Numbered from the stretch's first letter, positions 2,674 through 60,221 are shown. The stretch: DNA of 64,000 nucleotides from Candidatus Woesebacteria bacterium RBG_13_46_13 (GCA_001791995.1 MGFR01000003.1:6170-70169), one strand, 5' to 3'. Notes: a model not told the origin generated them from the sequence alone. Numbers and translations: made by a program.

Positions 2674-3615
2674 TTATCTGTCAGGCGCTGCTTCATACGA
2701 TTCTTTAATAATCGGCATCATATAATCAATAGTTTTATCTGATTTTACATCTATCCACCAAAGCGGTGTTTTCCCCCATTTATAAGACTCCGGTATTTTG
2801 GTCAACTTATTGGCGGTATCGTGGTTTAATTTTTCCTTCCTCACAGTGACTCTAAGCTTATCTTTATATACATGAATTGAAACAAAGTTATACCAATTTA
2901 TTTTGTACCCAATATAGTTGCCTACCGGTTTTTCAATAATCTGATCATCGATCTGTTTAATCCTATCTCTAATTTCGTCAAGAAGTCGGGTAATCTGCGG
3001 CGAAGCTTTCTTATAGTGATCATCTACAGAGTAAACTTTTATTTCGCTACTGACTTTTCTTATTGCCTTGCTTTTCGTCACTTTGGTAATAGATTCTTCT
3101 GCCTCAGCTGGTTTTATCTGACTAAAGAAAACGGTATCGTTTTCAAAAAGTTCAGCTTCCCATAGCTCAAAGGGTAAATCTTTGAAAGCAACGGCACCCA
3201 ACTGATGGAGCGTAAAGGAAGGGGCGATAAACACAACTCTAGATTGCGTCCAATCAACGTCTGTTCTTTTAATAGATTTCTCTGTCCTTTCGGCGTATTC
3301 GAGAACGAATTCCGCCTTATTATTAAGCATAAGTCCCAAATAGTTGAAGCCTTGATCAATCACGGAAAAGCTTTCGTTTCGTTTGTATTCGATAATCACA
3401 AAGGATTTTGTTTCTGGATCAAATGCTAGTGTGTCAATAATAAAATTTCTTACAATAAACTGTTTGTTTTTCTTACCAGAGACAAACTGAAGTCCAAAAA
3501 CTTCTTCTAGCGATTCTTCCGTAAGAAGTTGTAAATCCTTTTCAAGATTAAAGGATCTTTCTTTAATTCTTGTTAGCTTCGGACCATTGATTTTAAAAAT
3601 CGGCATTTGAGGCAA
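2674..3615 (-). CDS. PD-(D/E)xK nuclease-fold protein (putative restriction-endonuclease-like / defence nuclease)
   Basis: Motif block NFIIDTLAFD ... SFVIIEYKRNE (D ... E-x-K) in the N-terminal half. Distinct beta-rich C-terminal domain. Located in the defence island. Confidence 0.5.
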   Translation of the reverse strand: MPQMPIFKINGPKLTRIKERSFNLEKDLQLLTEESLEEVFGLQFVSGKKNKQFIVRNFIIDTLAFDPETKSFVIIEYKRNESFSVIDQGFNYLGLMLNNKAEFVLEYAERTEKSIKRTDVDWTQSRVVFIAPSFTLHQLGAVAFKDLPFELWEAELFENDTVFFSQIKPAEAEESITKVTKSKAIRKVSSEIKVYSVDDHYKKASPQITRLLDEIRDRIKQIDDQIIEKPVGNYIGYKINWYNFVSIHVYKDKLRVTVRKEKLNHDTANKLTKIPESYKWGKTPLWWIDVKSDKTIDYMMPIIKESYEAAPDR

Positions 3616-3640
3616 TTATACTACTTCAAAAATCAACCAG

Positions 3641-4531
3641 CTAAACGTTCCTTTTGCACTCCATGCATAGACCCTGTGTTAAAGGATTGCTATCATATCC
3701 GTCAGATAGGCTGAGTGGTTTTCCACATCTTTTGCAGGGGTTAACAATATATGCAGACAGGGTTGGTCCAGAGGGCCCAGTTGGGAATGTCCCTGAAGCA
3801 ATACTTAAGTTGCTTAATGATTGCTCTGAAACTTTATTTTGTAATTTAGAGATGTCCGACTCTTTTTTAAGGATTTCTTTCTCAAGATCTTCAATCTCTT
3901 CTGTTTTATCCTTAGCAAGTTGGTCTTTCTGCGTTTTGAGACTTTTCAGTTCTCCATTTAGAGTGTTGATTGAATCTTCTTTAAGTCTCATTTCTTCAAA
4001 ATAATCCACTATTTCTACAGATGCTGGATTAATATCAGCCCAGTCAGTGATAGAATTTAAAATATCCTTGTCAACATTACTTATAAGATTTTGAATTTCA
4101 TCAAGATTCCTGTCATCCTTTTCGTTAAATATTTTTATGCGGTCGGAAATATTTTTAACTTTATATTTAAGCGATTGCAAATATCTTATTGATGTAACGC
4201 TTTTTTTTGAAAGGATTGTGTTCCCTTTGGCTTCAATCAAATTTTGTACTATGACCGCTGTAGTTACTGAAGAAAAGATAATTTCAAAAATTTCAAGAGC
4301 AATACGAGTAGTGCCTTCTAGAGATTGCGCATACAGAAACAGTGCGATTGCAATTAATGCCGGCGCAACTGCACCTGGCGTTAAAACAATCGATAATGCA
4401 AATACCCATTTTTCTTTCAGAGAAGCCAGATATATTTTGATGTTCGCGAGTGAAACATTTATAGTATTGTGTGGTACTTGCCTAGCAAATCTGTTTCCTG
4501 CTTCCATTCTTTTTTTACTATGTTTTTTCAT
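3641..4531 (-). CDS. membrane-anchored coiled-coil protein with C-terminal CxxC...CxxC zinc ribbon
   Basis: Two predicted TM helices after MKKHSKKR. Long charged heptad-like region (KEDSINTLNGELKSLKTQKDQLAKDKTEEIEDLEKEILKKESDISKLQNKV). C-terminal CKRCGKP...CMECK. The ORF track starts 30 nt earlier. Confidence 0.45.
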   Translation of the reverse strand: MKKHSKKRMEAGNRFARQVPHNTINVSLANIKIYLASLKEKWVFALSIVLTPGAVAPALIAIALFLYAQSLEGTTRIALEIFEIIFSSVTTAVIVQNLIEAKGNTILSKKSVTSIRYLQSLKYKVKNISDRIKIFNEKDDRNLDEIQNLISNVDKDILNSITDWADINPASVEIVDYFEEMRLKEDSINTLNGELKSLKTQKDQLAKDKTEEIEDLEKEILKKESDISKLQNKVSEQSLSNLSIASGTFPTGPSGPTLSAYIVNPCKRCGKPLSLSDGYDSNPLTQGLCMECKRNV

Positions 4532-44397: not shown

Positions 44398-44471
44398 TGG
44401 ACCCGGGGGGATTCGAACCCCCAACCCCCTGACTGCCAGCCAGGTGCGCTAACCAATTGTGCCACGGGCCC
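44398..44471 (-). tRNA. tRNA-Ala (anticodon GGC), CCA encoded
   Basis: Hand-folded cloverleaf. G3:U70 alanine identity pair, anticodon loop CUGGCAG, T-loop GGTTCGAATCC. Confidence 0.8.
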
Positions 44472-44475
44472 GCGG

Positions 44476-44549
44476 TGGACGGTAAGGGACTCGAACCCCT
44501 GACCTTTCGCACGTCAAGCGAACGCTCTAGCCAACTGAGCTAACCGTCC
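44476..44549 (-). tRNA. tRNA-Val (anticodon GAC), CCA encoded
   Basis: Cloverleaf with acceptor GGACGGU/ACCGUCC and anticodon loop UUGACGU. 4 nt from tRNA-Ala. Confidence 0.8.
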
Positions 44550-46740: not shown

Positions 46741-46998
46741 GTGGCAACTAAGTTATTTGTCGGTAATCTTGAATACACTGTTACTGCCGATGATCTTCGA
46801 GAAGCTTTTTCTCAAGCCGGTACAGTGGCAGACGCCGTTGTAATTTCAGACAAAATGTCTGGTCGAAGCCGAGGATTCGGTTTCGTTGAAATGAGTTCGG
46901 ATGAGGAAGCGAAAGCTGCAATCGAAAAGATAAACGGTACAGAGATTAAAGGCAGAAAGATAAATGTGAACGAGGCTCGTCCTCAAGTAACTCGCTAA
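46741..46998 (+). CDS. RRM-type RNA-binding protein (85 aa)
   Basis: RNP2 LFVGNLEY and RNP1 RGFGFVEM motifs. GTG start with AAAGGAGA SD. Confidence 0.8.
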   Translation: MATKLFVGNLEYTVTADDLREAFSQAGTVADAVVISDKMSGRSRGFGFVEMSSDEEAKAAIEKINGTEIKGRKINVNEARPQVTR

Positions 46999-47062: not shown

Positions 47063-47401
47063 TCAGTCCTGAGCCAGCCTGTGCAGAAACCAGGAGACCA
47101 AAGAAAGAACTATCGAAGCGGCAATTGCTGTCCAGAAGGTTGAGATTTCAAACCCCGGGACGATTTTGCTGGACAGATACAAAAGGCCAACGTTAATCAG
47201 AAAGGCAGCAATGCCAAAGGTGAATATTGATATCGGCAGGGCGATAAGCTGTAAAATAGGTTTGATAAAGGTATTGACCACCCCGATGACAACCGCCGCA
47301 ACAGTTGCCGTTGCCAGATCCTTAAGGATAAACCCCGGAACAAGATATTCAACAATCAGAAGAGCAAAGATATTGATGGCCAACCTCATTAAAAGTCTCA
47401 T
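47063..47401 (-). CDS. phage-holin-4 / DUF360 (YvlD-like) family small membrane protein
   Basis: 112 aa with four TM segments. NTFIKPILQLIALPISIFTFGIAAFLINV is a characteristic stretch of that family. Confidence 0.6.
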   Translation of the reverse strand: MRLLMRLAINIFALLIVEYLVPGFILKDLATATVAAVVIGVVNTFIKPILQLIALPISIFTFGIAAFLINVGLLYLSSKIVPGFEISTFWTAIAASIVLSLVSWFLHRLAQD

Positions 47402-47419: not shown

Positions 47420-48433
47420 TTAATCCGCCTTTGTCAAATCCTGATTGAAGAACAGGAGGTTTCTGGCTACAACCGTGTTCCACGCAGGGTTTAGGTTATG
47501 GTCGGCCCCCGGGTATTTGAAGTAGGCTATATCTTTTTCTAGGTCTTTAAGGCTTTTGGAGAGAGAATCGCTCCATTCAACAGGCACGGCATCATCTACC
47601 GTACCCTGATGTAACTCTAGGGGGGCATTTATTCTGTCGTAGTAGCGGTCGATGGCATATAAGTCTGGGTCATAAAGTCTTTCAAAATCCGCCAGCTCGT
47701 GCCTGATCAGCTTGCCCCTGTCTTCGGATTCATCCGTGTAGTAAAGGATTGAGTAAGGGAAGGGCTTTGATACCGGAGCCCAGAGGACGGTTGGAATTTG
47801 TCTTTGCGTAATCTCCAAAAGAGTTAAGGCAATCTGGCCGCCGTTGGAGTGAGCCCAAATAAAGACGTTTTGGCTGTCCCAATCTTTAATCGAGGGAAGC
47901 GAAGCCAGAAGGACCAGGGCGGTGGTATAGGTTTGGAAGCGCGATTCGAAAATGTTGCCCGCCTCGGGGTCGGACTCTGCATATCCCAAAAAGTCCGGAG
48001 CCAGGGTGATATAACCGTTTGAGGCAAAATATTCTGCGGCCCGCTGGGTTCCCGTACCCGTTTTGTATATTTTCTGGTCGACATAACCCCGAAACATGAT
48101 AACCAGAGGGAAAGGACCCTGGCCTTTGGGGATATTTATTTGACCGCTGACCTTTTTGGCAGCTTTATTGGAGAGAGTCGGATCAAACGAAAAATAAAAC
48201 AAGAATGAGGTGTAATCAGGAGTTTCCTTAATAGTTTCCCCCTTTTCGATAGCAACCGGCTTGATAGATAATTCCGATAGGTTTTCTATAGAATATTTAT
48301 CCAAAGGTCGGGGGATTATTTTTTCAGCCGCCTTTTCCAAGCCTGTATCTCGTATTTCAAAAAACGAGTGAATGTACCACCCCAAAACCAGAGATAATAA
48401 GATTACGATCGGAAGATATAAATAGTTTTTCAT
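47420..48433 (-). CDS. alpha/beta-hydrolase fold protein (S9 peptidase / dienelactone-hydrolase-like), membrane-anchored
   Basis: Nucleophile elbow G-H-S-N-G-G (IWAHSNGGQIA), downstream Asp and His. N-terminal TM helix. Confidence 0.6.
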   Translation of the reverse strand: MKNYLYLPIVILLSLVLGWYIHSFFEIRDTGLEKAAEKIIPRPLDKYSIENLSELSIKPVAIEKGETIKETPDYTSFLFYFSFDPTLSNKAAKKVSGQINIPKGQGPFPLVIMFRGYVDQKIYKTGTGTQRAAEYFASNGYITLAPDFLGYAESDPEAGNIFESRFQTYTTALVLLASLPSIKDWDSQNVFIWAHSNGGQIALTLLEITQRQIPTVLWAPVSKPFPYSILYYTDESEDRGKLIRHELADFERLYDPDLYAIDRYYDRINAPLELHQGTVDDAVPVEWSDSLSKSLKDLEKDIAYFKYPGADHNLNPAWNTVVARNLLFFNQDLTKAD

Positions 48434-49836
48434 GCCCCGAAAAGCCTCGGCATATTTTGGATTATGGTAAGAGCGCTAAAGACTCCGTAGAAGATGAAAG
48501 CAGCTGCAATTACCGCAACTCGGATAAAGGAAGGCCTGAGAGCAGGCGAAAAAGTTCTAACGTTTAAGAAAACTATTAAGGCGCTATATACAAACATCGC
48601 CATGGCATTAAGTGCCGCACCTATCACGACCAGGGTTAAAGGTTCTGTTAACCCTAAAGAAAAGATAGCGACACCGGCCAATATTTGAATCCATAAAAAG
48701 ATGTAGTAGTAGACCGGAAGTTTTCCGATTTTAAACCTATTGGATGCAATTATCAGGTTTTCAGACATTATTCTACTTGTAGCGTCTAAGACTGAAAATT
48801 GTGTGGAAAAAAGCATCGCAGCAGCGATTAGCAAAAACAGAGTTCCGATTATGGGTAAAGTTTTGGCTGCAATAACTCCGGCTTCGCTTAAAAGAAACAT
48901 TATTCCCTGTGACCCCTGGGGATTTCCGTAAACCGTAGTGTAGGCAAGCAAGGAAAGCATAATCATGGAGACGGCTCCCGTTGCCCAAAAAATAAGCAAA
49001 TGTTCGATATTGATTCTTTTCCACCAAACTCTAAAAAACTTAAGATTTTTAGGGGTAGGTTCAAAAGTTACCCCTTCCAGCTTTATGTTCTCTTTCCTCC
49101 CTGTTAAGATGCTCGTAATTCTTCCAGAATATTTTCCCATTCCATAACCTTTTTCCTTGACATAATAACCCTGAGCCAAATTTAAATTCCCGCCCGCTCC
49201 TGCATAGGCAAAGGCACCCAAAAAGGTCGCCAGAGAGATTCCTGCAGGCAGAAATAAATAGCCTCGACCCTGCCCAACAAGACCTTTTGCAAGTTCAACC
49301 CAATCGGGAGTCTTGGCTAAGATAAAGGCGACAGCGAAGATAAAAGGCACACCGATTAAGATCAGTGTTTTTTGAAAGACCTCTTGAGTTTTATAGACCA
49401 CCGGACCCAAGGTGAGGACCAAACCGATAAGCACAAGTAGGATTATCGGAATAATTGGAGAGTAGGTTAATCCAAAAATATGGGCGATAAGGGTTGCCGA
49501 GGAAGCAATTATTCCGGGCCACATCCAGGGGATTAGGGTGGAGAAAATAAACCACACCGGCGATACGAGCTTAAGCTTTCTGGCAAGGCCCACAAAAACG
49601 CTTTCTCCGGTAACTAGTGTATATCTTTCAATTTCCATATTGATAAAAAACTGAAAAGTTATTCCCAGAAGAGCCCCCCAGATTATCCCCAGACCATAAT
49701 TGGCGGAAAGAAAAGGCCAGAGGATAAGTTCGCCACTGCCGAAACCTAAACCCAAAAGAATAAAACTTGGACCGATTAGCCTTAAGAGAGGTAACGGTTT
49801 AGGGAGGTTTCCTTTTCCCAAAGGTGCAAGTTTCAT
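48430..49836 (-). CDS. Nramp-fold (MntH-related) membrane transporter with non-canonical metal-site motif
   Basis: TM1-TM2 region IGPSFILLGLGFGSGELILWP...QFFINMEIERYTLVTGESV aligns with Nramp GP-x-(DPGN)...E-x-R-x-G-I-x-TG. DPGN is replaced by GSGE. 468 aa, about 11 TM helices. Confidence 0.55.
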   Translation of the reverse strand: MKLAPLGKGNLPKPLPLLRLIGPSFILLGLGFGSGELILWPFLSANYGLGIIWGALLGITFQFFINMEIERYTLVTGESVFVGLARKLKLVSPVWFIFSTLIPWMWPGIIASSATLIAHIFGLTYSPIIPIILLVLIGLVLTLGPVVYKTQEVFQKTLILIGVPFIFAVAFILAKTPDWVELAKGLVGQGRGYLFLPAGISLATFLGAFAYAGAGGNLNLAQGYYVKEKGYGMGKYSGRITSILTGRKENIKLEGVTFEPTPKNLKFFRVWWKRINIEHLLIFWATGAVSMIMLSLLAYTTVYGNPQGSQGIMFLLSEAGVIAAKTLPIIGTLFLLIAAAMLFSTQFSVLDATSRIMSENLIIASNRFKIGKLPVYYYIFLWIQILAGVAIFSLGLTEPLTLVVIGAALNAMAMFVYSALIVFLNVRTFSPALRPSFIRVAVIAAAFIFYGVFSALTIIQNMPRLFGA

Positions 49837-50763: not shown

Positions 50764-51024
50764 ATGTTGGAGAAGATTTCAGCTCCGGTTTCCGTAACCC
50801 TGGTTTTTGACCACGCCAAAAGAAAAGTTTTTCCCAAGTGGCTGGTTTGGGAAGGAAAGCTCTATCCGCTCGAAAAAGTCGGCCTGCACCACACCTTCAG
50901 ACAGGGCCGCACCCTTTTCCACGTCTTCTCCGTGGCCTCAGAAACCCTATTTTTCCGACTTGTTTTCAATACCGACAATTTATTCTGGCGCCTGGAGGAA
51001 ATTTCAGATGGTCTTCCCGACTAA
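50764..51024 (+). CDS. hypothetical small protein (86 aa) immediately upstream of Y-family polymerase
   Basis: ORF ending within 17 nt of the polymerase start. No motif recognised. A YolD/UmuD-like accessory role is speculative. Confidence 0.3.
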   Translation: MLEKISAPVSVTLVFDHAKRKVFPKWLVWEGKLYPLEKVGLHHTFRQGRTLFHVFSVASETLFFRLVFNTDNLFWRLEEISDGLPD

Positions 51025-52270
51025 CCTTCCTTTCAATTCCAAACCCTCGACCGTGATGCATCTGGATTTGAATTCCTGCTTTGCCACCATCGAACAACAG
51101 GCCAACCCGCTTTTAAGGGGAAAGCCCGTGGCCGTGGCAGCCTACACTACTCCTTCGGGTTGTATTGTGGCCCCCTCTGTCGAGGCCAAACGCCTGGGCA
51201 TAAAAGTCGGAATGAGGGTCAAAGACGGAAAACTTCTTTGCCCCAGCCTGATAGTTTTGGCTCCCGACCCTTGGAAATACCGCAATGTCCACCTGGGCTT
51301 AAGGAAGATTGTCTCCGACTATACGCAGGAGTTTAGCCCCAAATCGATAGACGAGTTTGTGCTTAACCTGGAAGGCTACCCCGCCTTGCAGAAAGGCATG
51401 TGTAACCTCGCCAGAGAGATCAAGAGGCGGATTAGGGCCGAAGTCGGTGATTGGCTCAGCGTCTCAATAGGAATCGCTCCCAACAGGTTCCTGGCCAAGA
51501 CCGCGGCCGGGTTGCACAAGCCCGACGGGCTGGACGAGATCAATAAGGATAATTTCGTCAAGGTCTACTCCGGACTTGAACTTACGGACCTCTGCGGGAT
51601 TAAGGAGAGAAACGCGGTCAGGCTAAACGGTATGGGCATATATAGCGTTCCGGACTTTTACAAGGCCCCTTTCTGGAAGCTGAAGGCAGCCTTCAGCTCG
51701 ATTGCCGGCTATTATTGGTATTTGAGGCTTAGAGGTTGGGAAATAGACGATGTGGCCTTTGCCCGACGAAGCTACGGCAATTCCTACGCCTTACCCAAGC
51801 CTTTCTCAAGCATCAAGGAACTATCCCCCATTCTCTCCAAGCTGGTCGAGAAAATGGGGATACGGCTAAGGAGGGCCGGGTATAAAGCCAAAGGGGTCCA
51901 CCTGGCCATCTTCTTCAGAAACGGCTCTTTTTGGCACAAAGCGGCAGCCTCAGCCAAAGTTCTTTTCGATTCCAGAGACATCTATCAAGAGGCTTTTAGA
52001 CTCCTTGTCCGTTGTCCCCACCGTAGCCCGGTACGTGAACTGGCGGTTTCCTGCTTCAACCTTTCCCGGGATACAAGCCTACAAATGGAACTTTTCGCAG
52101 ACGTTGCCAGAAAACAAAAAATAGTCGAGGCGCTCGATGCAGTCAATGAACGCTGGGGAAACTTTGTGGTTACTCCGGCCAGAATGGCGGGGATGAACGA
52201 CACGGTTTTGGACAGGGTGGCTTTCGGTGGGGTGAAAGAACTGGAAGAGTTTACTCTAAATTCCAGATAG
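51008..52270 (+). CDS. Y-family DNA polymerase, UmuC/UvrX-like
   Basis: MHLDLNSCFATIEQ...LRGKPVAV...GCIVAPSVEAKRLGIKVGM closely parallels the UmuC N-terminus (CDVNAFYAS...GKPVVV...GCVIARNAEAKALGVKMG). GGAGGA SD 8 nt upstream of ATG 51008. An alternative start is ATG 51056. Confidence 0.75.
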   Translation: MVFPTNLPFNSKPSTVMHLDLNSCFATIEQQANPLLRGKPVAVAAYTTPSGCIVAPSVEAKRLGIKVGMRVKDGKLLCPSLIVLAPDPWKYRNVHLGLRKIVSDYTQEFSPKSIDEFVLNLEGYPALQKGMCNLAREIKRRIRAEVGDWLSVSIGIAPNRFLAKTAAGLHKPDGLDEINKDNFVKVYSGLELTDLCGIKERNAVRLNGMGIYSVPDFYKAPFWKLKAAFSSIAGYYWYLRLRGWEIDDVAFARRSYGNSYALPKPFSSIKELSPILSKLVEKMGIRLRRAGYKAKGVHLAIFFRNGSFWHKAAASAKVLFDSRDIYQEAFRLLVRCPHRSPVRELAVSCFNLSRDTSLQMELFADVARKQKIVEALDAVNERWGNFVVTPARMAGMNDTVLDRVAFGGVKELEEFTLNSR

Positions 52271-53829: not shown

Positions 53830-53912
53830 TGCCGAGGAAGGGAGTCGAACCCCCACGTCCTTAAGGACACGTGGCCCTAAACCACGCGCGTCTGCCATTC
53901 CGCCACCTCGGC
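53830..53912 (-). tRNA. tRNA-Leu (anticodon TAG), type II long variable arm; CCA not encoded
   Basis: Hand fold: acceptor GCCGAGG/CCUCGGC, anticodon loop UUUAGGG, variable stem-loop UGUCCUUAAGGACGU, T-loop GGTTCGACTCC. Confidence 0.8.
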
Positions 53913-53920
53913 GCGGCTAT

Positions 53921-53955
53921 ATTATAACAAAAAGGGACCCCCTTTCGGGGGTCCC
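53921..53955 (-). terminator. intrinsic-terminator-like hairpin (9-bp GC stem, UUUC loop, U-tract) downstream of methyltransferase gene
   Basis: Plus-strand gggaccccc-tttc-gggggtccc. On the minus strand it is followed by UUUUUGUUAUAAU. It lies only 8 nt before the tRNA-Leu(TAG) 5' end. Confidence 0.45.
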
Positions 53956-54097
53956 AGGAAAAATTCCGACGCTCAGACCAGTAAACTGGCTTTGCCTCAG
54001 AATCTAGTAGGGACTATAACATAATACTCTAGGATTGTCAAGTGTAGAGGAAGGTGCGAAGATGCCTACATTAAGGGTTTTCTCTGACTACTAAAGG

Positions 54098-54856
54098 CTA
54101 TCCCCTTTTCCTGGCTAAGACAAAGACCGACGGTCCGAAATTAAACAAGGATAGGGGTTTTTGTAAATGCTTCTCGTAAGCCAAAAGCGTATAACTGGGA
54201 ACAAGTCTCTTGATAAAGGCACTTCTGATGTTTGATACCGAACGCTTTTCGACTATAGAAAAGCCGAAATGCTCGAGTTTCTCCAGGATGACATCGGGGT
54301 GGTAGTTGAGAAAATTGATCGAGTGCTGCCTGCGCGATTTTTTGCTACGCTTATCCGAAGGAAAAATATCAAAGCGGAAAGTCAGATTCCCCTTTAAGAA
54401 CTGAATCAGCGTGGCTTTAAGGTGCATCTTGTTGGGAAATTCCAGAATAAAATAACCGTTGGGCTTAACAAGTTTTTCGACCGCAGTTAAGGCCTTATCC
54501 AAATCCTCTATGTGGTGTAGCACCCTGACCATGATGACCAGATCGGCGCTTTGCGCCCTTAGCTTCTCATTGAGGTTTTCTACGCCGGAATGGATGATCC
54601 GTATATTTTTGAGCTGGGAGAATTCCTCTCTGGCGATTTTCAGCAGTTTGGAGGACGGATCGGTCAAGATTACCCTTTTGGCCCGGTAGAGATATGTCGG
54701 AACAAGTCTACCGAAACCCGCTCCGATTTCGATAATGGTGGAAATCCTGGGTATCCGTTCCAAAAAAGCCTTTAAGGCAATTATTTCCGAACCGTGCTCG
54801 TAATCCCTGCCTATCCAGTAGTTTGGGTAATCGTAGGTGTCATAATGCGCAGCCAT
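54098..54856 (-). CDS. class I SAM-dependent methyltransferase
   Basis: Motif I IIEIGAGFGRL and motif II region DLVIMVRVLHH. 252 aa. Substrate unknown. Confidence 0.7.
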   Translation of the reverse strand: MAAHYDTYDYPNYWIGRDYEHGSEIIALKAFLERIPRISTIIEIGAGFGRLVPTYLYRAKRVILTDPSSKLLKIAREEFSQLKNIRIIHSGVENLNEKLRAQSADLVIMVRVLHHIEDLDKALTAVEKLVKPNGYFILEFPNKMHLKATLIQFLKGNLTFRFDIFPSDKRSKKSRRQHSINFLNYHPDVILEKLEHFGFSIVEKRSVSNIRSAFIKRLVPSYTLLAYEKHLQKPLSLFNFGPSVFVLARKRG

Positions 54857-54899
54857 ATTGTTTTGAGGCGAAACTCGATTATACAGGAGAGTTCAAAAA

Positions 54900-55538
54900 C
54901 TACTCCATTTCGCTCATGAATTTATTTACTCCCGCAGCCCATGAGCCATTGGAAAGAGGAGTGTATTTACTCATAATATCCTCGATAGTTTCGTAGCCCT
55001 TGTTCAGGTATTCGTTTCTTATCCCTTGCGAGACCGTATCTATTCCTTCTTCGAAGGAGGTAAAGCCGAGAGTGCCCCGGCTGTGGATTCCCCAACCCCA
55101 GCAATTGTAGCTTCCGGGAGGTATTATTTTACAGAGGTTTGATTCCTGTTGGGCGATGGCGGTAATTAAACGATAATCGAGCTGGTATCTATCGGCTGTG
55201 GCGACAATAAAGTCCGAATAAGGGACCAAAGGAGAGGCGTAGCTTGCCAGATACTGGCGGACTATTTCGCTTCTGGCATCGGCAGTATTGGGATCTCCCG
55301 AGATTTCCGGAAGAGTAGTCGGAAGAGATGCAAAAACTTTGACTCCCGATTGCGGATACAAAATATAGTTGGATTCCATCAGATTCGGATTTTCTGCCTT
55401 ACCGTTCTTGGAGAGAGAAAGCAAAGAGAATAGGCTGGTGGCCAAAGTAAGCGGGGCAACGGTAAAGAATATCGCAATCAAAAAAAGGTTTTTCCAAAAG
55501 GAAAAATCTTCCTTGAAGGTAAAGTTTTCTTGATGCAT
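54900..55538 (-). CDS. membrane-anchored lysozyme-like (putative peptidoglycan glycosidase/transglycosylase) protein
   Basis: N-terminal TM. LITAIAQQESN...CWGWGI resembles the catalytic Glu-Ser and Gly-rich motifs of lysozyme-like/SLT/glucosaminidase folds. Confidence 0.4.
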   Translation of the reverse strand: MHQENFTFKEDFSFWKNLFLIAIFFTVAPLTLATSLFSLLSLSKNGKAENPNLMESNYILYPQSGVKVFASLPTTLPEISGDPNTADARSEIVRQYLASYASPLVPYSDFIVATADRYQLDYRLITAIAQQESNLCKIIPPGSYNCWGWGIHSRGTLGFTSFEEGIDTVSQGIRNEYLNKGYETIEDIMSKYTPLSNGSWAAGVNKFMSEME

Positions 55539-55604
55539 ATCGGGCAGAGTATGCTGCCAAAGTCAGGATGCCACAAATGACCAGGCAAAGTCAAGAAATT
55601 TTAG

Positions 55605-55676
55605 TGAGCCTGGGAGGAATCGAACCTCCAACCGCTTCCTTAAGAGGGAATCGCTCTACCGTTGAGCTACAGGCCC
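55605..55676 (-). tRNA. tRNA-Lys (anticodon CTT); CCA not encoded
   Basis: Hand fold: acceptor GGGCCUG/CAGGCUC, anticodon loop CUCUUAA, T-loop GGTTCGATTCC. The 5' end overlaps the upstream CDS stop by 10 nt. Confidence 0.75.
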
Positions 55677-57064
55677 TTGATTAGCTTCAATATTGTAGCA
55701 AAGAAACCGTCTATTTTCATTCTTGGAGGGGAAACGATAAACAATTGGAAAAATTCAGGGGAAGAAATTGCATTACCGCCTTTTGTCAGAGTCAAGGATT
55801 TTAGCTGGACACCGGACTCTTCGGGGGCCAGTATCTTGAAAGAGATGAAGCCTATAGAGCCGGGTTCAAGGGTCTCGAAGGAGGGAGATATTCCTAATGC
55901 AGATTCTTCTTGCGAAATTAAACCTATATCACTTTTGTTCCAGATAGACTGGCCGGTATTCTTTACAAGTAAGGTGCCGGAGATTATGGAACCTGTTAAG
56001 CGGAAGGGTTGAACGATAACGCTTTCGATTTCGGCCTTTTCTTCCTGGACAGGTTCCCCCTTGACCTTATTTAGGCTTGCTACCTCAAAATAGAAAGGGT
56101 AAAAAAATCCTTCTTTGTCTTTCCAGGAAAAAGTGTCGAAAGGAGGCTCGTTATAGGAAAGCAGAAACGGGGTAACCGCGATAATTTTTTTGTCCGTCCA
56201 GACTTGGGTAAAGGCAAAAGAAAGCCTTTCTCCGATTATATCGGTACTTATGGCTTTTTTCTTTTCGCCGTTCATGGCATGGGCCCAACCGGTTTCGGTA
56301 ATAAATACGGGTAATTCTTTGGCTATCCCCAGCTCCTTTAAAAGAGAAAGTTCCCAGTCATATGTTCTAACGGAGCCCCTTCCGTATCCGTTTTGGCTAC
56401 CGGAAAAATCGGGGTTGGGGTAGGAATGCGACGCCCAGCCGTCGACGTTTGCAAAGACTTGCGGCTCTTTGGCCAGCATTTTTTTGATAAAAGTAGCTTC
56501 GTCCATGGTATCTTTTGAATTCCCGGCGGAGGCATCTAGTCCTGCGGGTAAGACGAAAAAGTCGGAGGAGGCACCCTTTAGTTTTGAGGAAAATTCCCTC
56601 AGATAAGTCGCATACTCTTCCGGATTTATCTCACCACCCCACTCCTTGGTGTGATTGGGTTCGTTGGCGATAACCACATAGCGGTTTTTGACAACCCAAT
56701 TTAGAGAGTTTAAAAAACTCACCCAGCCGTCAATTTCGCCCAGACTTGGCTTTTCCCAAATATCTCCCAAGGGTCTGGTGGCAATTCTTACAATTGGTAT
56801 CAGATGCAGCCGTCGGGCTTTGTTAAAAGTATCCTGCCATTTATCCTTGTTTTTGTCGGTTTGCTGGATAACCAGAGTTACGTAACCCCAGTCTCCTCCG
56901 CTGGAATTGACCAGTTTGGCCGCATCCTCCAAATCGTTGGAATCGATAATGTGGATTCCGAAACGGTTATTGGCAACCGAGGCAAGATCGTAAGCAGCTG
57001 CTATTCTTGAGCCAAAAAGCAAAAAACAGATTGAAACAAATAATGAGGTTAGTAGTTTTTTCAT
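55667..57064 (-). CDS. secreted GH-A clan (GH5-like) glycoside hydrolase
   Basis: Signal peptide. VIANEPN (acid/base Glu of the NEP motif) and FITETGWA (nucleophile Glu), spaced as in TIM-barrel GH5-type enzymes. C-terminal beta-rich domain. Confidence 0.6.
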   Translation of the reverse strand: MKKLLTSLFVSICFLLFGSRIAAAYDLASVANNRFGIHIIDSNDLEDAAKLVNSSGGDWGYVTLVIQQTDKNKDKWQDTFNKARRLHLIPIVRIATRPLGDIWEKPSLGEIDGWVSFLNSLNWVVKNRYVVIANEPNHTKEWGGEINPEEYATYLREFSSKLKGASSDFFVLPAGLDASAGNSKDTMDEATFIKKMLAKEPQVFANVDGWASHSYPNPDFSGSQNGYGRGSVRTYDWELSLLKELGIAKELPVFITETGWAHAMNGEKKKAISTDIIGERLSFAFTQVWTDKKIIAVTPFLLSYNEPPFDTFSWKDKEGFFYPFYFEVASLNKVKGEPVQEEKAEIESVIVQPFRLTGSIISGTLLVKNTGQSIWNKSDIGLISQEESALGISPSFETLEPGSIGFISFKILAPEESGVQLKSLTLTKGGNAISSPEFFQLFIVSPPRMKIDGFFATILKLIKGL

Positions 57065-57096
57065 CCAGAATAATCTTAGCAGAAGCGAATTATTTG

Positions 57097-57170
57097 TGCC
57101 CCCGGCGCGACTCGAACGCGCAACCCTATCGTTAGAACCGATGCGCTCTATCCAATTGAGCTACGGGGGC
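57097..57170 (-). tRNA. tRNA-Arg (anticodon TCT); CCA not encoded
   Basis: Hand fold: acceptor GCCCCCG/CGGGGGC, anticodon loop GUUCUAA, T-loop GTTCGAGTC. Confidence 0.75.
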
Positions 57171-57174
57171 TCGG

Positions 57175-57246
57175 AGCGGGCGAAGGGAATTGAACCCTCT
57201 GTCTCTTCCTTGGCAAGGAAGCATTTTACCGGTAAACTACGCCCGC
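57175..57246 (-). tRNA. tRNA-Gly (anticodon GCC); CCA not encoded
   Basis: Hand fold: acceptor GCGGGCG/CGCCCGC, anticodon stem CUUCC/GGAAG with loop UUGCCAA, T-loop GGTTCAATTCC. Confidence 0.8.
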
Positions 57247-57433
57247 ACTGTGCTGAAGGCGCTATCAGAGTCAAGCACCCCAATTTGATTCCAGCAATTC
57301 AATAATACTATAAACGAGGCTGAAATTCTAATTACACAACAGAAAGTTCTAAAAGCTTACCAAGCGGAGCATATAATTATACTTAAACCATATTAAAATT
57401 GTGCGAATAATTGACATAGTTTGTTGTATATAA

Positions 57434-57462
57434 TTGACTTTTTGATGATAAGTGGGTATATT
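57434..57462 (+). promoter_or_regulatory. near-consensus sigma70 promoter TTGACT-17-TATATT with AT-rich upstream region
   Basis: -35 TTGACT at 57434-57439, 17-nt spacer, -10 TATATT at 57457-57462. AT-rich UP-like tract at 57370-57430. Confidence 0.45.
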
Positions 57463-57468
57463 CGAGGT

Positions 57469-57560
57469 GTGCTGGTGGGCGAAAGCCCCTCTTCGGCTAA
57501 GGTATATCTAAGCTGAGAGCCAGCACACTAGGAGCGTCCGCGAGGACGCTTCTTGTTTCT
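57469..57560 (+). ncRNA. candidate small structured RNA (about 92 nt), function unknown
   Basis: Bounded by the promoter above and an intrinsic terminator. Predicted closing helix GUGUGCUGG/CCAGCACAC encloses a GGGC-GAAA-GCCC hairpin and a UCGGCUAAG/CUAAGCUGA hairpin. No plus-strand ORF in the transcript. Confidence 0.4.
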
Positions 57561-57944
57561 GGAACGTTTATTGTTAGGCATTACACTTACAAATTCAACC
57601 TTTCCCGTTCCTATTTTCTCAAGAACGACCCTCATTTCTGTATCTTTTGCTATTTCGCTAACCAGGCCGTATTGGATAACAGATTTCTTTTTACCCTTTA
57701 TTTCTTTTGTTGTGTTTCTAGCTTTAAACTCCTTACTTTCTCTTATTACTCTAGGTGCATGAGGTAAACACATTAACTTGAGATATTGTTCGTCAATCGT
57801 TCGTGGCCTTCGATTTTTCTTGTACAGAAGGTGATTGAAGCCATTCGATGTAAAGAAAACGGTATCTCCCAAGGCTGGACAATAAATTGAAACAATGCTG
57901 TTATAGAAAGCACGCCTTCGAAGTTTTAGAATTTCAATATTCAT
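57528..57944 (-). CDS. hypothetical basic protein (138 aa) in AT-rich segment
   Basis: ORF in a low-GC stretch between tRNA genes. Lys/Arg-rich C-terminus. The ORF-track start at 57998 would overlap tRNA-Phe, so the internal ATG at 57944 is used. No SD. Confidence 0.25.
   Translation of the reverse strand: MNIEILKLRRRAFYNSIVSIYCPALGDTVFFTSNGFNHLLYKKNRRPRTIDEQYLKLMCLPHAPRVIRESKEFKARNTTKEIKGKKKSVIQYGLVSEIAKDTEMRVVLEKIGTGKVEFVSVMPNNKRSRNKKRPRGRS
57533..57560 (+). terminator. rho-independent terminator (7-bp stem AGCGUCC/GGACGCU, GCGA tetraloop, UCUUGUUUCU tract)
   Basis: Read directly from the sequence. The U-tract occurs only on the plus strand. Confidence 0.55.
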
Positions 57945-57971
57945 TAAGCGAAAGCTAACAGAAAATTTCTG

Positions 57972-58044
57972 TGCCGAGAGTGTGAGTCGAACACACATCT
58001 GACGCTCTTCAGGCGCCCGCCGTGACCACCTTGGCTATCTCGGC
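57972..58044 (-). tRNA. tRNA-Phe (anticodon GAA); CCA not encoded
   Basis: Hand fold: acceptor GCCGAGA/UCUCGGC, anticodon stem GGCGC/GCGUC with loop CUGAAGA, T-loop TGTTCGACTCA. Confidence 0.7.
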
Positions 58045-58056
58045 AAATTACTCCTG

Positions 58057-58130
58057 TGGTCGCTGAGGGTCTCGAACCCCCGACCTTGCGGATGTAAACC
58101 GCACGCTCTAACCAACTGAGCTAAGCGACC
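58057..58130 (-). tRNA. tRNA-Val (anticodon TAC); CCA not encoded
   Basis: Hand fold: acceptor GGUCGCU/AGCGACC, anticodon loop UUUACAU, T-loop GGTTCGAGACC. Confidence 0.8.
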
Positions 58131-58215
58131 TGGTGCCGGGAAGAGGACTCGAACCTCCACACCTTGCGGTACACGCACCTCAAGCGTGCCTGTCTACCAG
58201 TTTCAGCATCCCGGC
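58131..58215 (-). tRNA. tRNA-Leu (anticodon GAG), type II; CCA encoded
   Basis: Acceptor GCCGGGA/UCCCGGC, anticodon loop UUGAGGU, long variable arm. Directly abuts tRNA-Val with 0-nt spacing. Confidence 0.8.
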
Positions 58216-58247
58216 ATGGTGCAGATAAGCCAAGCTTGTCTGCTCTG

Positions 58248-58333
58248 TGCAGATGAGAGGACTTGAACCTCTACGGACGTTTAAAGTCCATACGGCCCTG
58301 AACCGTACGCGTCTGCCATTCCGCCACATCTGC
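58248..58333 (-). tRNA. tRNA-Leu (anticodon CAG), type II; CCA not encoded
   Basis: Acceptor GCAGAUG/CAUCUGC, anticodon loop UUCAGGG, variable arm GGACUUUAAACGUCC. Confidence 0.8.
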
Positions 58334-58362
58334 AAATAACCTGAATATTATATCAAAAAGGG

Positions 58363-59442
58363 CTATATAAATCTTACTTGGAGTTCTGGACTAACTTTGG
58401 TGGTTAGAGGTACCTCCTGACCGGGAAAATGTGCGGCCGGTCCCCAGATTTTGGCCAGCTTTTTATCAGAGGCAAAATCTTCTCCTATCTCTTCGGCGAC
58501 CTGGGCCAGTGTTTTTCCTTCTTTGGTAATCATGGGGTTTGCCGTTCCCGGCTCCTCATCCGCCTTGACCAGATAAATCTTAAGAAGCCTAAGCCTCTGC
58601 CAAATTTGAGTCAAAAGCTCATCTATTCCCTCTCCGGTTTCTGCGCTGATTGCTATGAAAATGTCTTTCGGCAGTCTATTAATTTTTTTGTCCTGGTCGA
58701 TTTTATTGATTACGAAGATAGCGTCAAGATAGGCCCTACTTGGAGAAAAAGCGTCAAGCAGCCGCTCCATTGAAAAATTCTCTTTTAAGACGATATCAGC
58801 ATTTTTGATGCCGTATTCCTTAGCTATCTCCTTGATGGTCTCTTTGGACAGCTGTTGGGTTATGTTCGACTGAACGTTTAGGCCCCCTTCGGGCTTTTTG
58901 TCGATACGAATCCCAGGTTGGGTTTTGTTTATCCTTATTCCTGCCTCCTCGAGTTCCTTCTGAAGTGTTTGGGTTTGGTCGGCCCTCTCGACGTCGGTCA
59001 TGATCAGCAATAGATCCGCACCGCGAGCAACGGAGAGGACTTCTTTGCCTCTTCCTTTACCGTGCCTTGCGCCTTCGATCAGCCCCGGTACGTCCATAAT
59101 TTGAATATAGGCGTCGTTGAATTTAAGCATTCCGGGAATTACCGAGACCGTGGTAAAAGCATATGGGGCTACCTTGCTTTCGGCGTTGGTCAGTCGATTG
59201 ATTAAAGTGGATTTTCCGGCAGAAGGAGGACCTATAAGTACAACCGTAGCGTCACCCTCTTTCCTGACGGCATAACCTCCTCCGCCCCCTCCGTGGGCAC
59301 GGATGACCCCTTCGAATTGTCTGTCTTTTAGACGCGAAAGTCTGGCTCTTAACTTTCCGATATGGTGCTCCGTCCCTTTGTGGTAGGGGGTTTCTCTTAT
59401 CTCCTTTTCGATATCCTCAATTTGTTGGGTAAAATCGGCCAT
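58363..59442 (-). CDS. DRG/Rbg1-family (Obg-like, TGS-containing) GTPase
   Basis: Near-colinear with eukaryotic/archaeal DRG1: EIEKEI..T..NK.TEHH.G.L.A.L, the GGGGGG...GDA stretch, G1 GPPSAGKSTL, G2 FTT, G3 DVPGLIEGA..GKGRG, NKID, and C-terminal TGS block LVKADEEPG...IWG. Confidence 0.8.
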   Translation of the reverse strand: MADFTQQIEDIEKEIRETPYHKGTEHHIGKLRARLSRLKDRQFEGVIRAHGGGGGGYAVRKEGDATVVLIGPPSAGKSTLINRLTNAESKVAPYAFTTVSVIPGMLKFNDAYIQIMDVPGLIEGARHGKGRGKEVLSVARGADLLLIMTDVERADQTQTLQKELEEAGIRINKTQPGIRIDKKPEGGLNVQSNITQQLSKETIKEIAKEYGIKNADIVLKENFSMERLLDAFSPSRAYLDAIFVINKIDQDKKINRLPKDIFIAISAETGEGIDELLTQIWQRLRLLKIYLVKADEEPGTANPMITKEGKTLAQVAEEIGEDFASDKKLAKIWGPAAHFPGQEVPLTTKVSPELQVRFI

Positions 59443-59467
59443 TGTTGTATAATTATATCTGATTTTA

Positions 59468-59539
59468 GCCTCTGTGGCTTAACGGATAGAGCATCGGTCT
59501 TCGGAACCGAGGGTGGAGGTTCGATTCCTCCCAGAGGCA
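59468..59539 (+). tRNA. tRNA-Arg (anticodon TCG); CCA not encoded
   Basis: Hand fold: acceptor GCCUCUG/CAGAGGC, anticodon stem UCGGU/ACCGA with loop CUUCGGA, T-loop GGTTCGATTCC. Confidence 0.75.
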
Positions 59540-59588
59540 CATTATATCTACTCCGAAGAAAATGTGGAGTTTCCCCAACGAAACGGGA

Positions 59589-60032
59589 TTATCTTGCGGG
59601 CTTGATAAAGGTTTTTACCCTGGCAACGCTAAAGCCGATAAATAGGCCCAAAAGTAAAGCCCAGCGGTAATTGACTATCCCCAACCCGGTAAAGGGTGCA
59701 AATCTGGCCACGGTCCAAACGGCTGCGCTGCCGATTAGGATGTAAAAAACCAGAGAGCCGAATCTGCTTTCGGGATGAAGGCCCCTTACCACAACCAAAT
59801 CCTTAATGGCCCAGTTTAGGAAACTGATCCAAAATCCCGAATAGATAATGGCGTCAATTAGCCCGAACTTGTAGTTTCCCAAGACGACGCTATCCGGAAA
59901 AATGATGTGGGCCAAATAAACAAAGAAAGACGTGATAAGCCAGGATAGTAAAAAGACAAAATGCTCGCTCAGATAATTCACCCCCTTTTCACCTTGAGTA
60001 TCGTATTTGGTGAAAAGTTTGTCAATGAGCAT
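59589..60032 (-). CDS. hypothetical polytopic membrane protein (147 aa)
   Basis: Four predicted TM helices. No motif recognised. Confidence 0.4.
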   Translation of the reverse strand: MLIDKLFTKYDTQGEKGVNYLSEHFVFLLSWLITSFFVYLAHIIFPDSVVLGNYKFGLIDAIIYSGFWISFLNWAIKDLVVVRGLHPESRFGSLVFYILIGSAAVWTVARFAPFTGLGIVNYRWALLLGLFIGFSVARVKTFIKPAR

Positions 60033-60060
60033 GCAGGCATAGTAAAATATGCATAGCTTA

Positions 60061-60145
60061 GCCGAGGTGGCGGAACGGTAGACGCACAGGACTTAAAATC
60101 CTGAGACCCATTTGGGTCGTGGGGGTTCGACTCCCTTCCTCGGCA
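60061..60145 (+). tRNA. tRNA-Leu (anticodon TAA), type II; CCA not encoded
   Basis: Acceptor GCCGAGG/CCUCGGC, anticodon loop CUUAAAA, variable arm GACCCAUUUGGGUCG. Confidence 0.8.
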
Positions 60146-60146
60146 C

Positions 60147-60221
60147 CGGGGAGTAGCTCAGCTGGTTTAGAGTGCGCGCTTTGGGAGCGCGAGGTCGCCG
60201 GTTCGAATCCGGCCTCCCCGA
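60147..60221 (+). tRNA. tRNA-Pro (anticodon TGG); CCA not encoded
   Basis: Acceptor CGGGGAG/CUCCCCG, anticodon stem CGCGC/GCGCG with loop UUUGGGA, T-loop GGTTCGAATCC. Only 1 nt after tRNA-Leu. Confidence 0.8.

Follow-up and report, generated by a model that had tools for sequence, protein, structure and literature searches.

A large, Patescibacteria-rich clade of Nramp-related transporters with a GxGE motif at the position of the metal-binding DPGN motif

Background

Does a protein that is annotated as a divalent metal transporter, and in which the metal-coordinating residues are replaced, carry metal ions at all? The question is raised by a gene on the minus strand at 48430..49836 of a 64,000-nucleotide stretch of DNA from Candidatus Woesebacteria bacterium RBG_13_46_13 (GCA_001791995.1 MGFR01000003.1:6170-70169), referred to below as the window; all positions are counted from its first letter. 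The gene encodes a 468-amino-acid LeuT-fold carrier with 11 helices, which belongs to an uncharacterised Nramp-related clade and is labelled 'Nramp family divalent metal transporter' in RefSeq. It is near certain that the protein is Nramp-related and that the canonical site is absent, and the RefSeq label is probably wrong for it. One reading, given a probability of roughly 0.4, is that in this clade an Nramp-type scaffold carries an organic nutrient or fermentation product instead of a metal ion, candidates being amino acids and 2-hydroxy acids (such as lactate, glycolate or glycerate), with Glu36 handling a proton or an ammonium group.

Gene, family and conserved motifs

The open reading frame (ORF) of the transporter is intact and begins with ATG, directly preceded by a GGGAGA Shine-Dalgarno sequence. 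Its product matched more than 3,162 clusters formed at 90% identity; among the matches listed, over 100 clusters were 64-83% identical, and the named ones were assigned to Woesebacteria, Microgenomates or Patescibacteria. In a search of 1.84 billion representatives at 50% identity, the family profile matched 1,887 clusters with E<=1e-3, of which 247 reached E<=1e-30. Relatives are encoded by at least 547 GTDB species representatives, mostly Patescibacteria. Remoter members, with 24-40% identity, are encoded by cultured Moorella (orthologue WP_258358712.1) and Rhodococcus (Rhodococcus jostii WP_265146716.1) and by one Planctomycetota metagenome-assembled genome. The closest homologues come from Candidatus Woesebacteria, in agreement with a Patescibacteria genome, and the G+C content of the window is ~47%. 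The gene is no one-off: it is typical of a clade that is very large and conserved.

This clade, called GxGE here, was defined by three motifs: G-[SAG]-G-E-x3-[WG]-P in transmembrane helix (TM) 1, [YF]-A-G-[AS]-G-G in TM6, and [RK]-[DE]-K-G-x-G-M-G in a loop. All three are present in the window protein. Conservation was assessed over 60 relatives with 24-56% identity to it; the coordinates that follow are on the minus strand. TM1 as a whole reads G22-P-S-F-I-L-L-G-L-G-F-G-S-G-E-L-I-L-W-P41 (49714..49773) and contains G33-S34-G35-E36 (49729..49740), which lies at the position of the Nramp D-P-G-N. Glu36 was found in 59 of the 60 relatives, Pro41 in all 60, Gly33 and Gly35 in 93% and Gly22 in 98%; judged from this conservation, the motif is not a product of chance. 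TM2 carries the segment Q62-F-F-I-N-M-E-I-E-R71 (49624..49653), with Q62 kept in 59/60, E68 in 56/60 and R71 in 58/60. TM3 contains a kink, P103-W-M-W-P-G108 (49513..49530), at the place where canonical Nramps have the acids of the proton pathway (E102, D109 and E112 in Escherichia coli); W106, P107 and G108 are conserved across the family in 78%, 88% and 75%, respectively. E152 in TM5 is kept in 57 of the 60 relatives.

In place of the Nramp A-x-x-M-P-H, TM6 has an unwound, Gly-rich stretch, Y211-A-G-A-G-G-N217 (49186..49206). G213, G215 and G216 are conserved in 90-95%, and residue 211 is aromatic in 56/60. The cytoplasmic loop between TM6 and TM7, K227-E-K-G-Y-G-M-G-K235 (49132..49158), follows the consensus R-D-K-G-x-G-M-G, which is the most conserved stretch of the family and was picked automatically as search pattern. 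TM8 contains a charged pair, D351...R355 (48772..48786), with an acidic residue at 351 in 59/60 and R355 in 57/60 relatives; a role for this pair beside Glu36 is proposed. Within the Woesebacteria synteny block described below, species whose trigger factors (encoded in that block) share 50-52% identity have transporters with 72-78% identity, which argues for strong functional constraint on the transporter.

Alignment with Nramp proteins

The initial annotation had described an Nramp-fold transporter in which GSGE replaces the metal-coordinating DPGN motif. The gapless register on which that description depends recurred in the BLASTP and hhalign alignments to MntH and other Nramps. BLASTP against E. 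coli MntH placed G33/S34/G35/E36 on D34/P35/G36/N37 at a pairwise E-value of 0.08. With hhalign, the profile of the 60-sequence family gave the same register against MntH alone (E 1e-4). Against eight canonical Nramps, gathered from plasmid records, it was aligned with a probability of 94% and an E-value of 1.4e-7 over 367 columns (residues 16-442 versus 17-389), the Asp of TM1 falling on Gly33 and the Asn on Glu36. The hidden Markov model (HMM) of the family, run against all PDB sequences, had a single match, the Nramp-related magnesium transporter (NRMT) EleNRMT (7qia; E 1.2e-6). In the comparison with Nramp and NRMT sequences that had been proposed as a check, four independent alignments thus agree: GSGE stands on D-P-G-N of MntH and on D-A-G-G of EleNRMT. 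Compared with haloarchaeal Nramp-related proteins by the same model, it falls on G-P-G-T.

The flanking matches in TM1 and TM2 pointed out earlier (GP, G..LW, and E.R..VTG versus AKLGIATG) are all real; R71-Y-T-L-V-T-G77 pairs with the Nramp segment A-K/R-L-G-I-x-T-G (...SAKLGIATG in MntH) in BLASTP as well as in hhalign. A shift of the alignment that would bring canonical D/N residues back nearby, which had been named as a possible refutation, fails, as Asp occurs just twice in the protein (178 and 351), in neither case within residues 1-177, and no alternative Asp or Asn is available.

The remaining site residues were located in the hhalign alignment. The TM3 acids E102, D109 and E112 stand opposite L101, G108 and a gap, the TM10 Gln stands opposite Ala407, and the Arg-Arg pair of TM9 stands opposite P374 and V375 in a region aligned with low confidence. 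The TM6-TM7 loop motif falls in an insertion or alignment gap relative to MntH. TM6 reads FAYAGAGGNLNLAQ. How it aligns with M-P-H is ambiguous, three different correspondences being given by BLASTP, by hhalign and by the helix break of the structural model. The transporter has only two His (119 and 279) and neither Met nor His in residues 120-232; since no alternative register supplies a Met or His within residues 195-232, the loss of the TM6 ligands holds whichever register is right. The NRMT signature, DxxG in TM1 and TxxA/T in TM6, was not found either: TM1 has Gly first and Glu fourth, and no matching Thr motif is evident in TM6. As far as can be read from these alignments, no canonical Nramp side-chain ligand or proton-relay residue has an aligned counterpart, and Glu36 is the only carboxylate in the region of the site.

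Predicted fold and family models

An AlphaFold model computed from the 60-sequence alignment reached a predicted local distance difference test (pLDDT) of 95.9 and a predicted template-modelling score (pTM) of 0.94, and has 11 TM helices with breaks at 211-215 (TM6) and 104-108 (TM3). A first AlphaFold2 model, made from 22 close homologues, was discarded (pLDDT 67, TM6 below 50). Target-normalised template-modelling scores in Foldseek were 0.82-0.84 for DraNramp and at most 0.64 for non-Nramp carriers; the structural alignments to canonical Nramps had a sequence identity of 11-15%. The model is a LeuT fold within the range of 11-12 TM helices and is closest to solved Nramps. The predicted fold and the Foldseek scores do not support an unrelated branch within the superfamily of amino acid-polyamine-organocation (APC) carriers, the other alternative by which the initial annotation could have fallen.

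Pfam gave no match for the transporter even at E<=1, PF01566 (Nramp) included; among the relatives, PF01566 is the only Pfam family that recurs, with weak matches in 7 of 60. Pfam families of the APC and neurotransmitter:sodium symporter (NSS) carriers neither matched the transporter nor recurred among the 60 relatives, and by sequence models and closest structures the protein does not belong to the APC amino-acid/polyamine permeases. No match in the PDB was obtained with phmmer or with the profile of close homologues; only the diverse 60-sequence profile reached EleNRMT. A phmmer search with TM1-TM2 against the PDB found nothing, and the likeness to the LeuT 'GLGN..FP' segment gained no sequence match.

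The RefSeq name goes back to NCBIfam NF037982 ('Nramp_1', 'Nramp family divalent metal transporter'), which is typed 'equivalog' with a cut-off of 50 bits and scored 318 bits for the window protein and 319 bits for E. coli MntH. TIGR01197 and PRK00701 match MntH (336 bits for TIGR01197) and not the transporter. Because NF037982 scores MntH and a clade without DPGN alike, it is a very broad model, and the product name carries no functional information; the model spreads the name 'divalent metal transporter' to proteins without the metal site.

The family HMM scored 43 and 27 bits for haloarchaeal proteins with G-P-G-T in TM1, 31 bits for a Rhizobium protein with E-T-G-N, 31 bits for EleNRMT and at most 21 bits for canonical Nramps. 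This order places the clade nearest to the non-canonical, 'Nramp-related' radiation, and the likeness to Nramp relatives of altered selectivity that had been noted at the outset was apt. The gene is a member of a large, deep-branching sister lineage of Nramp/SLC11. How variable the site is outside SLC11 is illustrated by the Rhizobium CB3060 plasmid protein with E-T-G-N and by a Sinorhizobium pSymA relative with D-P-S-G in TM1 and a long N-terminal extension.

Gene neighbourhoods

Neighbourhoods were compared in 160 loci, 80 from Patescibacteria and 80 metagenome loci of a distant subgroup. In the window, the transporter is followed on the same strand by a gene (47420..48433, minus strand) for a 337-amino-acid serine hydrolase of the alpha/beta type that has a membrane anchor at its N-terminus; the ATG of this gene overlaps the transporter stop codon (ATGA); the two genes are probably co-transcribed. 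The best Pfam matches of the hydrolase were Hydrolase_4/S33, Peptidase_S9 and DLH, i.e. a generic esterase/peptidase type. Among the 80 closest species, 22-25 have the hydrolase gene next to that of the transporter and in the same orientation, in every case inside a Woesebacteria synteny block. As a clue to the substrate it was rejected, a generic serine hydrolase/esterase not being informative. The only recurrent neighbours in the 80 Patescibacteria loci were this hydrolase, a PF04020 membrane protein, trigger factor, DinB and DUF192. All of them belong to the one Woesebacteria block (~24/80), so that they reflect synteny within a lineage and do not prove a functional link.

The 80 metagenome loci contained 205 neighbours in 162 clusters with no dominant partner. 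Recurring genes of the distant subgroup were GlcF-like (Fer4_8+CCG; 7/80 loci), GlcD-like (4/80) and of the dihydrodipicolinate synthase family (4), in overlapping sets of loci. In Rhodococcus spp. the order is LysR, transporter, beta-hydroxyacid dehydrogenase, enolase-superfamily enzyme and major facilitator superfamily carrier, and the start of the dehydrogenase gene overlaps the stop of the transporter gene; the gene of Rhodococcus jostii sits in a LysR-controlled catabolic operon. Two members have a pyridoxal phosphate-dependent PALP enzyme <=10 bp downstream or ~500 bp upstream. The Moorella member is followed by an aminotransferase IV / ilvD / acetohydroxyacid synthase cluster, the Planctomycetota member has a divergent gene for a GlcD-like FAD oxidase, and another member has a glycerate-kinase-like gene downstream and a LarA gene several kb upstream. 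Weak as they are, these contexts of distant members agree in favouring small amino- or hydroxy-carboxylic acids over metals.

No recognisable metal-homeostasis gene was present in the recurring neighbour clusters of the 160 loci, in which families of metal regulators were not explicitly searched. Canonical plasmid Nramps adjoin metal-dependent regulators. With Rfam, neither a metal riboswitch (M-box included) nor an amino-acid riboswitch was detected, either in the window or among 60 related loci. The only riboswitch type in these 60 loci was the c-di-GMP-I-GGC aptamer, present in one locus (L158) at 390-469 and 2985-3064 (63 and 67 bits); one copy lies ~320 nt upstream of a distant GxGE member (791-2188). 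In another locus (L141), a group II intron (3634-4190; models D1-D4 and domain V/VI) is located directly downstream of a distant family member.

Substrate and mechanism

Shared by the clade are the Gly-rich breaks in TM1 and TM6, Glu36 (predicted to be buried), the aromatic residues of TM3 and TM6 and the acid/Arg pair of TM8. Read from these replacements, the cargo of the window protein would not be a transition metal. The protein may work as a secondary carrier of the LeuT fold by alternating access, and its cargo would be an alpha-amino or alpha-hydroxy organic acid, either a nutrient or a fermentation product. In LeuT, TM1 reads G24-L-G-N27-F-L-R-F-P32, and Asn27 and the carboxylate of the substrate share the sodium ion Na1. 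APC permeases have G-S-G as their signature in TM1, and in LeuT and AdiC the G-x-G breaks of TM1 and TM6 hold the carboxylate and the amine of the substrate by backbone atoms. The spacing of the TM1 motif in the clade, G-x-G-[N/E]-x3-[F/W]-P, resembles that of LeuT, with Glu36 presumably at the position of Asn27. By analogy with LeuT and AdiC-type carriers, the substrate carboxylate could be held by the backbone of the G-S-G break in TM1 and the A-G-A-G-G break in TM6, and Glu36 could act as the coupling site for H+ (or Na+) or as partner of the substrate ammonium. A precedent is provided by nearest relatives, in which G-P-G-T proteins are encoded beside hydantoinase/oxoprolinase genes and YcsG/PxpT is tied to 5-oxoproline (PMC13274462).

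The substrate class is the weak step of this explanation: a small carboxylic acid with an amino or hydroxy group, for which Glu36 would provide the coupling or amine-binding site, was rated slightly below an even chance. Several points weigh against it. Every biochemically characterised Nramp relative (SLC11, NRMT, NRAT) moves a metal cation, and for YcsG of B. subtilis, under the name MntG, import of Mn2+ has been reported as well (PMC10448178). An invariant Glu at a metal-ligand position fits a cation site equally well. The context signals come from relatives that are 25-35% identical and are sporadic and lineage-restricted, the 80 Patescibacteria loci have no informative partner, and the block with the hydrolase also holds housekeeping genes. 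Finally, BLASTP and hhalign disagree on the register of TM6 against M-P-H.

The main rival, possible though on balance unlikely, is a carrier of an inorganic cation of the hard type (Mg2+ or perhaps Ca2+, K+ or NH4+). In that case the carboxylate would have shifted from position 1 to position 4 of the TM1 motif, and Glu36, backbone carbonyls of TM1 and TM6 and water would bind the ion in an enlarged cavity as in EleNRMT. NRMTs likewise have no Asn, Met or proton relay, and their expanded site nevertheless binds hydrated Mg2+ (PMC8806188). Glu36 is invariant and lies where a metal ligand is expected, the characterised relatives are all cation carriers, and the gene mostly stands alone, as is common for ion carriers. 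The Asp that is present in every characterised metal-transporting relative (PMC8806188), however, is Gly in 93% of the clade, and the number of side-chain ligands is reduced to one, where Nramps have four (Asp, Asn, Met and the Gln of TM10, here Ala407). Conserved aromatic residues replace the TM3 acids, and the conserved Arg355 of TM8 may be near the site. Nor does the context favour a hard cation, with no metal riboswitch in the window or the 60 loci, no recognisable metal-homeostasis gene in the recurring clusters and several relatives in gene clusters for organic or amino acids.

That the protein is a Mn2+/Fe2+ importer as RefSeq labels it, with a site that has diverged and still binds Mn2+, is improbable. 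The 318-bit match of NF037982 would agree with such a function, except that this model scores MntH equally and is very broad, and neither Pfam Nramp nor TIGR01197 gives a match. The requirements for Mn2+ are loose, as binding-site mutants of EcoDMT and also EleNRMT still move this ion (PMC8806188), and YcsG/MntG, with Gly at the Asp position, is reported to raise cellular Mn2+ (PMC10448178). Here, however, replacement affects Asp, Asn, Met and His as well as the acids of TM3 and the Arg of TM9, and with the Met the soft ligand that selects transition metals over Ca2+/Mg2+ has been lost. The neighbours, in contrast to those of canonical Nramps, included no recognised metal-dependent regulator, in a comparison that involved no explicit search for such families. 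Least credible of all is that the protein merely has the generic LeuT fold of another APC-superfamily branch and that the match of GSGE to DPGN is accidental. Such a view can draw on the marginal pairwise similarity to MntH (E 0.08), on the lack of a PDB match with phmmer and the close-homologue profile, on Foldseek E-values for Nramps and other APC carriers that are only about two orders of magnitude apart, and on the occurrence of G-S-G in APC amino-acid permeases as well. It is opposed by a profile-profile alignment that spans residues 16-442 at 94% probability, by EleNRMT as the sole PDB match of the diverse profile (E 1.2e-6), by PF01566 as the only recurring family among the relatives, by 11 helices as in bacterial Nramps, and by the 'R/K-x-x-x-x-T-G' segment of TM2 in common with Nramps. 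The preferred reading is an organic-acid carrier on an Nramp-type scaffold.

Other features of the window

Among the genes around the transporter are those for trigger factor, for a DinB-like DNA polymerase of the Y family (Pfam IMS), for DUF192 and for numerous tRNAs. The PF04020 (Phage_holin_4_2) protein (47063-47401, minus strand) has 112 amino acids and four TM helices; its gene lies just downstream of the hydrolase gene in 24 of 80 related loci, in a chromosomal, non-phage context. A single-RRM RNA-binding protein of 85 amino acids (PF00076, E 1e-22) is encoded at 46741-46998 on the plus strand, and an RRM gene is nearby in only 5/80 related loci. Immediately upstream of the polymerase gene, a small ORF for 86 amino acids (50764-51024, plus strand) gave no Pfam or NCBIfam match and is conserved together with the polymerase gene in 19 related loci. 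The polymerase ORF as called mechanically (TTG at 50807) overlaps this small ORF; the true start is probably an ATG near 51056. The window contains 13 tRNA genes, 11 of them within ~6.4 kb (53830-60221) and two at 44398-44549. Between 2001 and 8000 the G+C content is 38-41%, against ~45-53% elsewhere, and this segment may be a foreign or specialised region.

Implications

If the protein is not a metal carrier, the label 'Nramp family divalent metal transporter' is a wrong annotation on thousands of genes, and metabolic reconstructions of Patescibacteria (Candidate Phyla Radiation) credit these organisms with a false Mn/Fe importer and miss a real importer or exporter. The gene, conserved and widespread in Microgenomates and other groups, could then be a main route of metabolite exchange for reduced, host-dependent Patescibacteria, and the clade would bear on the question of how carriers of the LeuT fold change over between ionic and organic cargo. 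The main value of the case lies in the risk of mis-annotation and in a testable orphan transporter with tractable orthologues.

That Nramp relatives without DPGN/MPH exist in general has already been published, as stated in a 2026 preprint (PMC12873925). The preprint describes Nramp-related groups with varied residues in place of DPGN/MPH, most of them uncharacterised, and calls the groups beyond 'NRMT-like' and 'G-motif 3' (MntG/YcsG) 'entirely uncharacterized'. Given the Gly at the Asp position, the GxGE clade is likely to be one of the 'G-motif' groups distinguished there. A description of the GxGE signature, of its dominance in Patescibacteria or of a likely non-metal substrate was not found in the literature examined.

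Comparison with known systems

The likeness to NSS/LeuT and APC amino-acid carriers is a functional analogy only, the structural match being clearly weaker than that to Nramps. The YcsG/PxpT/MntG group and the haloarchaeal G-P-G-T proteins share with the window protein the Gly in place of the TM1 Asp, and the integrative model of YcsG (PDB entry 9a52) was among the top Foldseek matches. The haloarchaeal proteins were grouped with YcsG by the Gly-first TM1 motif and the oxoprolinase-family neighbours only. They differ from the window protein in that G-P-G-T has no carboxylate and that TM6 has T-I-V-G-Y-N where Y-A-G-A-G-G-N is found here. YcsG-type genes are linked to pxpABC/oxoprolinase; no such gene was among the recurring neighbours of the 160 GxGE loci, for which no dedicated search was made. 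YcsG/PxpT is needed for growth of C. glutamicum on 5-oxoproline (PMC13274462), and YcsG of B. subtilis, as MntG, was reported to import Mn2+ and to raise its cellular level, so that the substrate of the type, 5-oxoproline or Mn2+, is disputed (PMC10448178). On megaplasmids of Haloarcula and Haloferax, the 'Nramp family' genes with G-P-G-T are preceded by a CopG regulator and directly followed by hydantoinase/oxoprolinase genes, an arrangement that echoes the link of YcsG/PxpT to 5-oxoproline.

Within PF01566, an outgroup and the NRMTs are without the Slc11-specific residues (Cellier, PMC9606685). NRMTs have the signature DxxG...TxxA/T and bind Mg2+ in hydrated form in an expanded site (Ramanadane et al., PMC8806188), and some members are associated with an M-box riboswitch (PMC4072509). 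Neither EleNRMT and other NRMTs nor the GxGE clade have the canonical Asn and Met, the histidines of TM6 or the proton relay of TM3 and TM9, and in the GxGE clade the small residues that replace the Nramp ligands suggest a similarly enlarged site (PMC8806188). NRMT and NRAT keep the TM1 Asp (PMC8806188), whereas the GxGE clade has Gly there and its sole carboxylate is the Glu at the fourth position. The clade further differs from NRMTs by an insertion of ~30 residues between TM6 and TM7 (RDKGxGMG), by the PWxWPG kink in TM3, and in that Pfam PF01566 does not reach the window protein.

With canonical Nramp/SLC11 proteins (MntH, DraNramp, ScaDMT, DMT1) the window protein has in common the 11 TM helices, profile homology over the full length at 94% probability, GP at the start of TM1 and R/K....TG at the end of TM2. 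It differs from them by GSGE in place of DPGN and by having neither MPH nor the TM3 acids nor the Arg pair of TM9; with these residues replaced, H+-coupled import of Mn2+/Fe2+ is not expected. In the GxGE clade the Nramp scaffold appears to be kept, and the soft-metal site (Asp/Asn/Met) to be swapped for Gly-rich breaks and a single Glu.

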